Positions 35,617-39,316 of a DNA stretch of 64,000 nt are shown piece after piece. Both the position numbers and the translations under genes were made by a program. A model generated the notes under the pieces. It searched no databases. It saw nothing but the letters and a program-made list of their open reading frames with translations, and was not told where the DNA came from. Numbering within the stretch: the first letter of the stretch is position 1; every line of letters begins with the position of its first letter. The DNA is from Vicinamibacteria bacterium (GTDB taxonomy: Bacteria > Acidobacteriota > Vicinamibacteria > Marinacidobacterales > Marinacidobacteraceae), in NCBI GenBank assembly GCA_964291235.2, contig OZ219816.1:832001-896000 (forward strand). The letters run 5' to 3'.

Positions 35617-36804
35617 ATGACCGATCCCGCAATCCATCTCGCCCAGCGTATTTCTGCGATTTCTCCCTCGCCGACGATGGCGGTCATGGCGGAGGCGATG
35701 CGCCTTCGCGCCGCCGGAGAGAACGTGGTGGACTTTTCGGCCGGACAGCCCGACTTCGATACGCCGTCGCTCGCGAGGGAGGCCGGGATCCAGGCCATCG
35801 AATCGGGATACACCCGGTACACCCCGAACCCGGGGGCGCCCGATCTGCGGGCGGCGGTCGCTGATTGCTACCGGCGCGACTTCGACCTCGACTTCGGGGC
35901 CGGCAACGTCCTCATCACCTCGGGAGGCAAGCACGCTCTCACCGGGTTGTTGCTCGCCACCTGCGAGGAAGGGGACGAGGTGGTGATCCCGACGCCCTAC
36001 TGGCCGACCTTCCCCGAGCAGGTGAAGATCGCCGGGGCCGCGCCGGTCCTCGCCCGCGCCGGAGAAGAGAGCGGGTTCCGGCCCACCCGGGACGTCATCG
36101 AGCCAGCGATGACCGATCGCACCCGGTGCATCATCTTCAACATTCCGGGGAATCCGTCCGGGGTGGTGCTCTCGGCGGGTGAGTTGGAGGCGGTGGCGCA
36201 CCTGGCGCTCGAGGCCGACGCCTACCTGCTCTGGGATGACACCTACGCCCGGCTCACCTTCGAGCCGGCGCCGGAAGGCGCCTACCGGCGGATGCAGGAA
36301 ATTCTCGGACACCGGTTCGTCATTGCCGGCGGAGCCTCGAAGACCTACGCCATGACTGGCTGGCGGCTCGGGTGGGCGCTCGGCCCGGAACCGGTCATCA
36401 AGGGCGCCGCCTCGCTGCAGAGCCAGATGACGTCCAACGCGAGTTCCATTTCACAAAAGGCGGCGCTCGCCGCGGTGACGGCGGACCCCGCCGGTTTCGC
36501 CTGGATGACCGAGGAGTTCGCCCGCCGGATGGTGCGGATGCGGAACGGCCTGCTGCAGATCGAGGGGCTCCGCTGCGGGCCCGCCGACGGCGGCTTCTAT
36601 CTGTTCCCGAACTTCGAGGCGGTCCTGCGGCCGGGCGAAGGGTCCGGCGAGCTCGCTGCCGCGCTGCTCGACGAGCAGCGGGTCGCCACGGTGCCGGGAG
36701 TGGCCTTCGGCCACGACACCCACCTCAGGCTCAGCTACGCCACTTCGGACGAGATCATCGACGAGGGCGTGGGGCGGATCCGGCGGTTCTTCGCGGCGCG
36801 CTGA
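35617..36804 (+). CDS. Class I/II PLP aminotransferase (aspartate aminotransferase-like)
   Basis: GQPDFDTP, PGNPSG, SKTYAMTGWRLG, LRLSYA. Confidence 0.92.
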   Translation: MTDPAIHLAQRISAISPSPTMAVMAEAMRLRAAGENVVDFSAGQPDFDTPSLAREAGIQAIESGYTRYTPNPGAPDLRAAVADCYRRDFDLDFGAGNVLITSGGKHALTGLLLATCEEGDEVVIPTPYWPTFPEQVKIAGAAPVLARAGEESGFRPTRDVIEPAMTDRTRCIIFNIPGNPSGVVLSAGELEAVAHLALEADAYLLWDDTYARLTFEPAPEGAYRRMQEILGHRFVIAGGASKTYAMTGWRLGWALGPEPVIKGAASLQSQMTSNASSISQKAALAAVTADPAGFAWMTEEFARRMVRMRNGLLQIEGLRCGPADGGFYLFPNFEAVLRPGEGSGELAAALLDEQRVATVPGVAFGHDTHLRLSYATSDEIIDEGVGRIRRFFAAR

Positions 36805-37051
36805 GACGGCGAACCTACGGTCGGAACCACTACCCCATACAGAGCAACGAGCGGGCCGTCCCTCCGCCATTGGTCCAGTCTGCACGCGATCGAGAAGCTA
36901 AGGGGCGGGACCTGCGCGGCAACCGTTCCTAGCTAGCCCGGATTTCTCATCCCTCCGTCGTAGAGATCTATGCAGGATGGTTCCCCTCTCGGCGAGAACC
37001 CAACTAGCCTTGATGTCGGACAGGCACGGGAGCCCCCTATAGGATCGGCGA

Positions 37052-37243
37052 CGTCCTGCGGGAGCCGAGATTCGGCTGCCGTTGTATCAACTCAGGTTGG
37101 CCAATCCGCCGGGAGTACTAACTGAGCCCCGGTGCCGCGAGCACCTACGGTGGACACGTACCCCGACGGATGGCCGTGATGGACGACCAGTGGAGAGTCG
37201 GTTCCAATCGAGAACCAGTATAGGGGCTGGACAGCATCGCGGC
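37052..37243 (+). ncRNA. Putative IS110 bridge RNA (target-binding loop about 37101-37173; donor-binding loop about 37173-37243)
   Basis: Loop 1: GAGCCCC-[GGTGC cgcga GCACC]-taCGGTGG-AC matches target GAGCCC(CC)ACCG. Loop 2: GTGGAGAGTC-[GGTTC caatcga GAACC]-agTATAGG-GG matches donor GTGGAAAGT(CC)TATA. The 5' end is inferred from the TAGGAT -10. Confidence 0.8.
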
Positions 37244-37286
37244 GCGGCGGACCTCCGGCGGAGCGCAAGCTCGAAGGAAGACAGCG

Positions 37287-38549
37287 ATGAAGCAGAAGCT
37301 GAGCTGGTTCGTGGGCATCGACTGGGGCGAGCAGAGCCACCAGGTGTGCCTGTGCGACAGGCGCGGGAAGGTGCGCGGGGAGCGCGCCTTCGCGCACAAG
37401 GGATCGGGGCTGGCGGCCCTGGTGAAGTGGCTTAGGAAGCAGACGGGTGTGCCGCCGGCGCGGGTGGCGGTCGCGATCGAGCGGCCGGATGGGGCGGTGG
37501 TGGCGACGCTGCTGGAGGCGGGGTTTGCGGTCTATGCGGTGAACCCGCGGCAGACGAGCCACCTGCGGAAGTTCATCTCCCACCCGGGGCACAAGAACGA
37601 CCGGCGGGACGCCCGGATGTTGGCCACCACGCTGCAGGCGAGCCTGGCGGGGTTCCGCCTGCTGGTGCCGCTACCGGGGTTGGTGCTGCGGCTGCGGGAG
37701 CGGACCCGGACGGCGGACCGTCTGCTCCAGGAGCAGGTCCGGCAGTGCCTGCGGATCCGGAGTGCGCTGGTGGACTACTTCCCGCAACTGCTGGAGGTGG
37801 CCGGCGAGGCGAAGAACCTGGGGGCTCCGTTCTTCCGGGAGTTGTGGGCTCGGGCTTCTACGCCGGCGAAAGCGCGGAAGGTGTGGTTGTCCACGTTGGA
37901 GAAGCTGGTCCGGCGGTATGGAGTGACCCGGATCAGCGCCGCGCGGATCCAGGCGTTGTTCCGGGAGCCGGCGCTGGTGATGGCGCCGGGGGCGACCGAG
38001 GCGGCGGTGGAGACGATCCGCACGGCGCTCGCACAGTTGGAGGTTGTGCGGGCGGAACTCGTCCGGGCGGAGGGCCAGATGACCCAACTGCTGGACGAGT
38101 TCTCGGAGACGGCGGAGGCCGGGGGTGGTTCGGATGCCACGGGCCCGGATCTGGTGAGCGCGTTGCGCTCGCGCCCGGGCGCGGGGGACAAGGCGCTGGC
38201 CCGGTTGTTCGCCTGGGGCTTCGAGGCGCTCTCGGAGGGGAACTACCGCCGTCTGCGCGCCTACTGTGGGGTAGCCCCGATCGAGGACCAGTCCGGCAAG
38301 TCCGCACAGCTCCGGCAACGGCGCGCCGTTCCCAGTTCGCTGCAACACGCCACCTACATCCTGGCGCGGGGGGTCGTCCGCTGGGACGAGAAGGTGGCGG
38401 CCTACAACCGGAAGTTGAAGGCGGAAGGGAAGCACACGGCCCGGCGCCACCGGAGCATCGCGGATCAACAACTCCGGGTGCTGTGCGCGATGGCCCGGAA
38501 CCGAACCCTCTTTGATCCCAACTTCTCCCAGAAGCGGAGGGCCGCCTAA
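37287..38549 (+). CDS. IS110-family transposase/recombinase (DEDD RuvC-like domain plus Transposase_20 domain)
   Basis: FVGIDWG (D), VAIE (E), KNDRRD (D,D), VYAVNP, AYCGVAPIEDQSGKS (conserved Ser). AAGGA RBS. Confidence 0.95.
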   Translation: MKQKLSWFVGIDWGEQSHQVCLCDRRGKVRGERAFAHKGSGLAALVKWLRKQTGVPPARVAVAIERPDGAVVATLLEAGFAVYAVNPRQTSHLRKFISHPGHKNDRRDARMLATTLQASLAGFRLLVPLPGLVLRLRERTRTADRLLQEQVRQCLRIRSALVDYFPQLLEVAGEAKNLGAPFFRELWARASTPAKARKVWLSTLEKLVRRYGVTRISAARIQALFREPALVMAPGATEAAVETIRTALAQLEVVRAELVRAEGQMTQLLDEFSETAEAGGGSDATGPDLVSALRSRPGAGDKALARLFAWGFEALSEGNYRRLRAYCGVAPIEDQSGKSAQLRQRRAVPSSLQHATYILARGVVRWDEKVAAYNRKLKAEGKHTARRHRSIADQQLRVLCAMARNRTLFDPNFSQKRRAA

Positions 38550-38589
38550 CGCTCTTGCGTTCTCGTGGAAAGTCCACCGGGAGAACTGG

Positions 38590-39316
38590 GCCGGCCTCCA
38601 GGCCGGCACAGCCCGCCGCAGGCGGGCGGCGGGACGGACCTGTCTGGCCAGGATGGCTCCCTCTCTCGGAGAGGACCCCGTGAGCGCGAGCAGCGAGGAA
38701 TCGCCCGCGGCGCTGCGCGCCGCGGTGCCGACCTGGAGGTCGGAGCCCGGCCCGTGCGGGAGCCTGAGTGCCGCGGCTGCTCCGCGTCCACCATCGGGCC
38801 GATCTGCGAATGGACCCGGCTGCGCCAATGCATCGAGGGCCAGCCAGCGGGTGGTTGGGCGCTCTCCGGCCCTGAGGGTGACAGAAATGTCGCTGTGGGG
38901 ATACCGGCCGGAGGTGAACATGTCGCAGTGGCCCGATTTCCGGGCTCAGCATGTCGCAGTAGCGGCACCGGCGCGGTGGAATCTGGGGCAGTATCGGAAC
39001 CGGCGCGTCAAGAGACACTTCCAGGCAGTTGGGAGACACCTACTCTTGCGCACTGCGGGGGTGAAGAGCGATGCGCCGCCCGCGGGCCTGCGGCCCGCTG
39101 TGCCGGCCTGGAGGCCGGCGTTCCCGTGCCGGTGGTGCTGGGGGGGGCTGGAGGGCGACGTGCGTTTCGCTCCCCGGTGGGGAGCGATGCCGGCCGGAGG
39201 CCGGCGCTCCGCTGTCGCGCGTTGTCGGGATGGGGCGCGGTGCGCCGCCCGCGGGCCTGCGGCCCGCTGTGCCGATCTGGAGATCGGCGTTCCCGTGCGG
39301 GCGGTGCTGTGGGGGC
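38590..39316. repeat. Cluster of REP-like palindromes, including two approximately 80-bp direct repeats
   Basis: GCCGRYCT-GG-AGRYCGGC hairpins at 38590-38607 (reverse), 38727-38744, 39102-39119 and 39271-39288. 39068-39148 resembles 39237-39316. Confidence 0.8.

Follow-up and report, generated by a model that had tools for sequence, protein, structure and literature searches.

An IS110-group insertion sequence with a predicted bridge RNA in an acidobacterium

Introduction

Does an insertion sequence (IS) of the IS110 group in an acidobacterium carry, in its left end, an RNA gene whose product would guide the element both to its target and to its own joined ends? The question is raised by a 64,000-nt stretch of contig OZ219816.1 (positions 832,001 to 896,000; assembly GCA_964291235.2) of a Vicinamibacteria bacterium. 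We call this whole stretch the window and use its numbering throughout; the parts of the element described below all lie on its + strand. An original prediction, drawn from the letters of the window, placed a bi-specific guide RNA upstream of a gene for a recombinase of the DEDD type. Bridge recombinases are under development as programmable tools for DNA insertion, inversion and excision. To our knowledge, almost all of the mechanistic work on them has been carried out with IS621 and IS622 from enterobacteria.

We consider it very probable that the element, at 37038-38575, is a complete IS110-group IS whose left end encodes a predicted bridge RNA of about 200 nt, and that it would move by a guide-directed cycle like that of IS621. 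Direct support comes from the limits of the element, its copy number, its target, the family of its protein, the conservation of the RNA structure, the complementarity between RNA and DNA segments, and the co-variation of these segments in relatives. Of the traits that define IS110-group bridge-RNA elements, those open to a check in silico are present by sequence, the junction promoter as a candidate.

The element and its target

Where does the element begin and end? The host genome (3.45 Mb in 2 contigs, 68% GC) holds five copies that are 98-100% identical, with a frame of 420 amino acids (aa) open in all of them. When the copies are aligned with their flanks, identity extends from TATAGG (37038) to GAAAGT (38573), the end being placed at 38573-75, and in all five copies the flanks read GGGAGCCC-CC, then TATAGG...GAAAGT-CC, then ACC(G/A)GGAG. 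The limits of identity and the CC at both borders thus define an IS of 1,538 bp with a CC core, and the ends that had been assumed for it prove to be exact. It consists of a 249-nt left end that starts TATAGG (37038-37286), the gene for the 420-aa recombinase, and a 24-nt right end (38550-38573). The left end holds the -10 half of a candidate junction promoter, a 5' stem-loop and the predicted bridge RNA; the right end holds a -35-like TTGCGT (38555-60) and the left donor half-site GTGGAAAGT (38565-73).

What is the target? In the window, the left target half-site GAGCCC (37030-35) and the core CC (37036-37) make up the flank at 37030-37037 that is common to the five copies, and on the other side a core CC (38574-75) and the right target half-site ACCG (38576-79) occupy 38574-38579. 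The expectation that other copies would be flanked by GAGCCC-CC-ACCG held in 5 of 5, with G or A as the last base: all five sit at GAGCCC-CC-ACC(G/A), with CC at both junctions, and the right flank is CC-ACC(G/A)GGAGAACTGGGCCG in each. The copies have the same orientation at these precise sites and lie in different genomic neighbourhoods. There are exactly five left ends and five right ends in the genome, and the assembly contains no solo ends. Empty sites read GAGCCC-CC-ACCG, with the left flank contiguous with ACCG, and two empty-site BLAST matches (C2:1533246-83 and C2:1533282-328) overlap by the 2-nt core. The exact 12-mer target, GAGCCC-CC-ACCG, has 21 unoccupied occurrences in the host genome, against 3.7 expected from base composition, and the 14-mer GAGCCCCCACCGGG occurs 18 times. 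The IS inserts site-specifically into a repeat that resembles repetitive extragenic palindromic (REP) elements. A repeat search of the element found no inverted repeat linking its two ends.

Guide segments in the left end

What might an RNA from the left end read? In the bridge RNAs described by Durrant et al. 2024 (PMC11208160), each loop's 5' side has the sequence of the top strand, the 3' side is complementary to it, and the core is included in each pairing. The same strand arrangement is found here, with loop 1 reading the target and loop 2 the joined ends, as had been predicted. In loop 1 the left target guide GAGCCCC (37124-37130) is identical to the left flank at 37030-36, that is, to the left target (LT) half-site plus the first core base, and the bottom strand would be its pairing partner. 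The right target guide CGGTGG (37148-53), which together with the AC that follows it (37154-55) spans 37148-37155, is the reverse complement of CCACCG at 38574-79, the core plus ACCG. In loop 2 the left donor guide GTGGAGAGTC (37190-37199) matches the right end plus the first core base, GTGGAAAGTC (38565-74), at 9 of 10 positions, the exception being a wobble of G in the RNA with T in the bottom strand. The right donor guide TATAGG (37219-24), with the GG that follows it (37225-26) spanning 37219-37226, is the reverse complement of CCTATA at 37036-41, the core plus the TATA of the left end. All four strings lie where the original prediction had put them, and match as it claimed, the 9 of 10 for the donor guide included.

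Could these matches be chance similarities in GC-rich sequence? The bare 6-mers do recur in the element: there are two more occurrences of CGGTGG, and the element itself begins with TATAGG. Within the 1.5-kb element, four strings are confined to the loop positions, namely the 7-mer GAGCCCC, the 10-mer, and both right guides when lengthened by two bases (CGGTGGAC and TATAGGGG). In mononucleotide shuffles of the 169-nt RNA region the single strings arose at rates of 3.4%, 8.8%, 0.03% and 1.7%, and none of 200,000 shuffles held all four. The same relation recurs in about 45 other families with different sequences. The shuffle test, together with the guide and flank permutation tests given below, refutes a chance origin, and we assign it a negligible probability.

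Co-variation of guides and flanks

Do the loops of related elements follow the flanks of those elements? The comparison of target loop and flank covers about 45 families, with one row for each combination of family and guide. The junctions of the relatives were located independently of the target loop, the right junction by means of the element's own donor guide and the left junction by its own right donor guide. On the right side, 46 own pairs of guide and flank were set against 2,108 cross-family pairs. At the right target (RT) positions RT1 to RT5 the own pairs match in 93, 89, 89, 89 and 74%, and the cross-family pairs in 27-50%; at RT6 the figure is 7%. The agreement amounts to 4.35 of 5 positions with the own right flank and 2.01 with those of other families, and it is perfect over the five positions in 27 of 46 own pairs as against 115 of 2,108 cross-family pairs. 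On the left side, loop and 12-nt flank were scored by their longest exact run in common, whose median is 7 nt for own pairs (n=42) and 3 nt for other families (n=1,718), and runs of at least 7 nt are present in 26 of 42 and 41 of 1,718, respectively. Scoring of the left guide in a fixed register ('LEFT reg 0/1') gave a modest signal, and was replaced by the longest common run because left guides differ between families in how far they extend at the 3' end and runs of C blur the register. On either side, none of 10,000 permutations reached the observed sum, though these figures overstate independence, since the families are related and some of them share targets. The suggestion that guide loops would co-vary with targets in homologues is thus borne out.

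The donor side was followed in 44 families: the element's own donor 9-mer is found downstream of the stop codon exactly in 28 of them and with at most one mismatch in 39, and the donor guides of other families, taken where they differ at two or more positions, are found exactly in 87 of 1,190 trials.

The clearest single case is that of three sister copies in one Rhodothermales metagenome-assembled genome (L081, L096 and L103), which have three different target-binding loops. Their right guides are GGGGGGG, GGGGGGG and GAGUCGG, and their right flanks CCCCC, CCCCC and GACTC, so that every right guide agrees with the flank of its own copy. Their left guides differ too, and each has a run of 6-7 nt in common with its own left flank, one of these through a single mismatch. 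By sequence, the three copies would be an instance of natural retargeting within one genome. In the sub-clade of the window element all members use the same repeat, and the left guide still changes with the flank, an AGGCCCC guide going with an AGGCCCC flank in the relative L043 and GAGCCCC with GAGCCCC in the window. Natural co-variation of this sort suggests that the guides could be reprogrammed.

In two relatives from other genomes (L074 and L111), the right end and a CC are followed directly by the start of the left end, TGTAC. These junctions would indicate head-to-tail tandem copies or a captured circle junction.

Structure of the RNA

Is there an RNA structure to hold these loops? Minimum free energy (MFE) and centroid folds give two modules, each of the form stem, internal loop, stem, together with a 5' hairpin, the stem-loop of the single-sequence fold at 37058-37082, upstream of both guide loops. 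Between the two subtypes of the IS present in the host, C>T at 37066 and G>A at 37074 make a compensatory change, C-G to U-A, in this hairpin. The core of the predicted bridge RNA, 169 model positions at 37088-37256, is closed by a helix of 37095-37102 with 37246-37253. Within it, the target-binding module (37104-37171) has an outer stem of 37104-18 with 37158-71 and an inner stem of 37131/2-35 with 37141-44/5; the donor-binding module (37172-37243) has an outer stem of 37172-82 with 37234-43 and an inner stem of 37200-05 with 37210-16. The stems that the original prediction had named are present in both folds and are recovered as helices 3, 4, 5 and 7 in the alignment described below; one of them, CCAG/CTGG, is weak, with 2 conserved pairs and 75% paired.

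How well is the structure conserved? A seed alignment of five close sequences (64-100% protein identity) already contains compensatory changes, GUAC/GUAC becoming GCGC/GUGC and, in the inner donor stem, GGUUC/GAACC becoming GCGC/GCGC. A covariance model, R1, was built from this seed with the loops left unpaired and tried on 55 of 111 homologue loci (L031-L141), one or two per family. It matched 53 of the 55, always 5' of the recombinase gene and on the same strand, with expectation (E) values of at most 1.4e-9; the misses were a 5'-truncated copy, L048, and L133. In the resulting alignment standard pairs make up 92.2% of the cells, where partners slid by 1-3 columns give 29.8-39.1%, and two-sided changes occur in 35 of 42 pairs; none of 500 shuffles reaches any of these measures. 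The two helices of the target module, 3 and 4, have 98.0% and 79.6% of their cells paired, with both sides changed in 12 of 13 and 3 of 5 pairs, and helices 5 and 7, of the donor module, have 89.9% and 98.4% paired. The stems are conserved across the alignment and the four loop segments are variable. A bridge-RNA architecture with two internal loops, as originally proposed, therefore finds support in a homologue-based model and in compensatory changes that keep the stems. A scan of 36500-39200 against Rfam 15 gave no match at E <= 1.

In three copies of a homologue in one other genome (L038, L046 and L054 of G018), an insertion of about 45 nt stands in place of the target loop's inner stem. 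Beyond the stop codon the copies remain identical over more than 900 nt, and this points to a larger element that has additional content. The left flank of this homologue holds the window's target repeat, inverted.

Handshake bases and a junction promoter

Two further features, both overlooked in the original prediction, bear on how such an RNA would act. Hiraizumi et al. 2024 (PMC11208158) describe two bases 3' of each right guide that pair, after top-strand exchange, with positions 6-7 of the non-cognate partner, and report that handshake pairing with the cognate DNA blocks exchange. In the window, the AC at 37154-55 is complementary to the GT that closes the right end rather than to the CC of the target, and the GG at 37225-26 to the CC that closes the left target rather than to the GT of the right end. 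With these bases fitting in this way, CGGUGGAC complements the right junction, GTCC-ACCG, and UAUAGGGG complements the left one, CCCC-TATA. Among relatives, the first handshake base of the donor loop complements the last target base in 39 of 42 cases, against 59% with families permuted, by pairs of four types (G:C 31, T:A 3, C:G 3, A:T 2). In the target loop, all of 46 cases have A as the handshake base, facing a conserved T; this is consistent with the scheme and not informative, the bases being conserved rather than co-varying. The handshake dinucleotides, read from the sequence, fit the IS621 model.

Might the loop strings be, instead, DNA copies of the ends and the target that serve as protein-binding sites, or might the structure be a translational leader, with no RNA guide involved? 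For such a view it can be said that the RNA molecule is known here from sequence alone, and that the structured region lies in the 5' untranslated part of the recombinase gene. A model of DNA sites is disfavoured because it predicts neither compensation in the helices, nor a two-strand register, nor co-variation of handshake bases. What is found is that compensatory changes keep the RNA helices while the loops vary, that the loops follow the flanks in the two-strand register of bridge RNAs, and that the handshake position of the donor loop co-varies with the non-cognate partner. We regard both versions of this alternative as very improbable, and continue with the proposal that the left end specifies a bridge RNA.

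The second feature is a candidate junction promoter. The -10-like hexamer TAGGAT (37040-37045) comes to lie 17 nt from the -35-like TTGCGT of the right end once the two ends of the element meet in a single core, and not otherwise. A junction promoter has been described for IS110 elements (Durrant 2024, PMC11208160). The geometry of the split promoter recurs among 39 families, with TTGnnn in 30, TAnnnT in 32 and both in 25; in several families outside the 25 the TTG is shifted by one base. By its sequence, TTGCGT-17-TAGGAT is a candidate promoter that predicts a transcript start near 37052, a point upstream of the 5' hairpin.

How might these parts work together? Transcription, binding of the RNA by protein, formation of a circle, and catalysis by this element we infer from the work on IS621, and the following cycle is offered by that analogy. 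The element would excise as a circle, its right and left ends meeting at a single CC core. The junction would assemble the promoter (TTGCGT, 17 nt, TAGGAT), which would drive the RNA and probably the recombinase. The RNA would fold into the 5' hairpin and the two stem-internal-loop-stem modules. Loop 1 would then pair with both strands of GAGCCC-CC-ACCG, GAGCCCC with the bottom strand and CGGUGG with the top, and loop 2 would pair likewise with the circle junction, GTGGAAAGT-CC-TATA. Strand exchange at the CC core would be carried out by the DEDD/Ser recombinase. After exchange of the top strands, the AC of loop 1 may pair with the GT of the right end and the GG of loop 2 with the CC of the target, so that the reaction would be driven forward.

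Recognition of the core

Is the core fully read? In the sub-clade of the window element, the last base of each left guide segment is a G (37131 and 37200) that pairs with a C across the inner stem; in the target loop, G37131 pairs with C37145 inside the RNA rather than reading the second core base, and in the donor loop the partner of G37200 is C37216. With this G locked in the inner stem, the left guides would read the left target plus the first core base only. The corresponding alignment column pair, 58-115, is G-C in 9 of the 50 rows that have letters at both columns, and unpaired in the other 41; there are 51 distinct rows, one of them gapped. Elsewhere in the clade, the left guides face the core with C-U, U-U or longer tails. 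Full-length right-guide segments in the alignment all end in GG, the complement of CC, so that right guides include both core bases and left guides the first only. The register of the left guide is the same in four distinct guide and flank pairs of the sub-clade, which upholds the earlier claim of left guides that end at the first core base; the claim of a CC core holds as well.

A CT core, as in IS621, was considered and set aside. Many relatives share CCT at both junctions, where either reading fits; the CC core was adopted because the window's own junctions share CC only.

By sequence, the CC core and the shortened left guides would be a modest variation on IS621. It is conceivable, though we think it rather unlikely, that in this sub-clade (64-83% identity) and in both loops the CC is fully read by the right guides alone. 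If this were true, recognition of the core would be asymmetric between strands, and the core requirement might be relaxed or shifted from CT to CC. A second possibility, of like improbability, is a gate beyond base pairing, given the repeat contexts of the five insertions described below. The element offers a natural test case for how much of the core the left guides must read.

The recombinase

Is the protein of the expected kind? The gene at 37287-38549 encodes a 420-aa protein with a DEDD RuvC-like domain and a Tnp domain. It matches PF01548 (DEDD_Tnp_IS110) with E 4e-28 over profile positions 1-155 of 155 and PF02371 with E 1.4e-8, and it scores 141.6 bits, barely above the cut-off of 140, with NF033542, the NCBIfam model 'IS110 family RNA-guided transposase'. 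In an alignment with six homologues (31-82% identity), D12, E65, D105, D108 and S295 are invariant. S295 aligns with the S-x-P-G-x-G motif of ISCro4, and it is probably the counterpart of S241 of IS621. These matches and the invariant DEDD and Ser residues agree with the assignment of the protein to the DEDD/Ser recombinases of the IS110 family. The matches to the solved ISCro4 and IS621 proteins are weak (E 2e-7 and 2e-6, 30-34 bits), so that the recombinase is a distant relative of the enzymes that have been studied.

Homologues of the recombinase at E <= 1e-30 are present in 10 of 61 related genomes, the host's own genome counted. When genome contigs were scanned with a pattern, 599 stretches matched and 571 of them encode a relative, and the best 80 were kept; relatives among these best 80 of the 599 come from Vicinamibacteria and other Acidobacteriota, Alphaproteobacteria, Rhodothermales and others. 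One relative, L141 (G014:C1:349100-353400), is decayed: it is 68% identical and has one in-frame TAG. It keeps the RNA and the right end at the same target, and the terminus of its left end is not recognisable.

Mobility, and evidence on the other side

Several observations weigh against the favoured reading of the element or limit its support. The right flanks of two relatives, L130 and L085, do not fit their guides, and L105, L118, L120, L140 and L068 fit in part, some of them at runs of C, where the length of the homopolymer is uncertain. Apart from about 12 multi-copy families, in which copies could be compared independently, the junctions of relatives were found by motifs taken from the other loop of the same RNA. 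The single-sequence MFE is not exceptional, with z = -1.44 and 17 of 200 shuffles folding at least as well. The pair counts of the RNA alignment, A3, are inflated and lean towards the structure because the alignment was fitted to the structure of the model, though the slid control is still far lower. The -35 of the candidate junction promoter matches the consensus at 3 of 6 positions only. A promoter scan of the linear sequence at 36700-38900 found 0 promoters, with thresholds that would miss the junction promoter too, and a terminator scan of the same interval found 0 terminators. A search of sequencing runs listed no RNA run with this sequence, which is evidence neither way. A circle or head-to-tail junction of the IS has 0 matches in the assembly, and the left guides, unlike those of IS621, lack pairing to the second core base.

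Could the element then be a genuine IS110 element with a bridge-RNA gene that is no longer mobile here, a recently silenced relic whose copies have spread, for example, by recombination in REP arrays? Such a history would sit well with the missing circle or tandem junction in the assembly, with the want of a listed RNA run, and with the incomplete core reading of the left guides. It would also suit the contigs of four metagenome runs over 36600-39000, none of which joins 37037 to 38576, as an empty allele would, and none of which contains a junction of right and left ends. Against it, two of the copies are identical over 1,538 bp and the remaining three differ at 17-18 sites, the five forming two subtypes with 18 differing sites between them. 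The five frames are open with the catalytic residues intact, and the five copies occupy precise, identically oriented targets in different neighbourhoods. Rare circles, moreover, are seldom retained in assemblies and contigs. We think it unlikely that the element is a relic. The original description of it as intact agrees with the near identity of its five copies, their open frames and the invariant catalytic residues, and we retain the view that a guide-directed recombination system is encoded here.

One metagenome contig of low depth, from a different metagenome, has a joint of 37064 to 38574 (depth 3, side 28); it was set aside as uninterpretable.

Relation to known systems

How does the element compare with IS621 and IS622 (ISCro4)? 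As far as the accounts of those elements go (PMC11208160, PMC11208158, and the preprint of Perry et al., 10.1101/2025.05.14.653916), the resemblances are many. There is a DEDD RuvC-like domain and a Tnp domain with a catalytic Ser; the left end is long and the right end short, and the left-end RNA comprises a 5' hairpin and a pair of internal loops. Pairing with the bottom strand falls to the 5' side of either loop and pairing with the top strand to its 3' side, around a core of 2 nt. Each right guide is followed on its 3' side by a handshake dinucleotide that suits the non-cognate partner and is mismatched to the cognate one, a candidate promoter would be rebuilt across the joined ends (here on the geometry of the motifs), and insertion is into REP-like repeats. 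There are differences as well. The window protein is about 90 aa longer (420 vs 328-341 aa) and only distantly related. Its core is CC where that of IS621 is CT, and unlike those of IS621 its left target and donor guides, of 7 and 10 nt, stop at the first core base, the second core position being a G paired inside the RNA. The right target guide of the window element is the core plus 4 nt, where most of the clade has the core plus 5 nt, and the host is a 68% GC acidobacterium rather than an enterobacterium.

Two other comparisons may be drawn, again as far as the sources describe these elements. ISPpu9 and ISPpu10 of Pseudomonas putida (10.64898/2026.03.19.712850) are likewise multi-copy IS110 elements that occupy one position of a repeated intergenic palindromic element, their targets being REP or conserved intergenic repeats. 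They have a reported stem-loop 'gate' by the target; the likeness to the window element is one of description, and the one hint of such a gate in the latter is the restriction of its five copies to one of two repeat contexts with the 12-mer, described below. The IS1111 group shares the recombinase family and the RNA-guided logic (Durrant 2024, PMC11208160). IS1111 elements, however, have the RNA in a long right end, with sub-terminal inverted repeats of 7-17 bp, whereas the window element has a right end of 24 nt, its RNA in the left end, and no sub-terminal inverted repeat in the repeat search.

Is the element new? According to Durrant et al. 2024 (PMC11208160), 85.7% of the IS110s in their catalogue have a predicted bridge RNA, and covariation extends across thousands of orthologues, so that a further member is to be expected. 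A literature search for IS110 or bridge RNA together with Acidobacteria gave no IS110 element or bridge RNA among the matches listed; ISfinder or the supplement of Durrant 2024 may list the element or its relatives. From its sequence, we take the element to be a genuine bridge-RNA IS, which would use the published mechanism, and a distant member of the family, not a new kind.

What it adds is a complete and apparently recently active system from a distant lineage, with a protein that can be aligned to IS621 only marginally. Its natural target, donor, guides, handshake bases and putative junction promoter have all been located to the base. The clade to which it belongs has about 45 families, and their guide code is legible directly in genome sequences; this makes the element a reasonable candidate for the screening of orthologs. 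For annotation, the left end of loci labelled 'IS110 family transposase' in Acidobacteriota, Alphaproteobacteria and Rhodothermales would carry a recognisable RNA gene.

Repeat contexts around the element

Does base pairing suffice to choose among target sites? The 12-nt target occurs in the host genome in two repeat contexts. Type I is GGCAxGGGAGCCCCC-ACCGGGAGAACTGGGCCGGCCTCCAGGCCGGCACAG (for example at C1:302395 and C2:451799), and type II is a unit of about 95 nt that forms a hairpin and ends in GGGCCGCGGGGGTTTTGCC (for example at C1:887335, C1:754877 and C2:1112888). All five IS copies are in type I, for which there are 7-9 empty sites, and none is in type II, with 11 empty sites (Fisher p about 0.04-0.05). 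The distribution is a weak hint of a requirement for insertion beyond base pairing.

A GC-rich palindromic core of 31-40 nt (GCCGGCCTCCAGGCCGGCACAG...) is found in tandem arrays with periods of 85 or 121 nt, at C2:1269308-1269593, C2:339261-339773 and C1:790902-791187, and in the window at 38590-38640 and 39080-39119; the IS sits inside one unit of this kind. In metagenome run X1 the summed contig depth over 38544-38705 is 10,442, against about 40 in the unique flank, contig depth in such runs not being the same as copy number. Finally, two similar 30-nt segments, CAGGATGGTTCCCCTCTCGGCGAGAACCC (36973-37002) and CAGGATGGCTCCCTCTCTCGGAGAGGACCCC (38651-38682), flank the IS at a distance, and by their sequence they look like successive units of a repeat array, outside the element.

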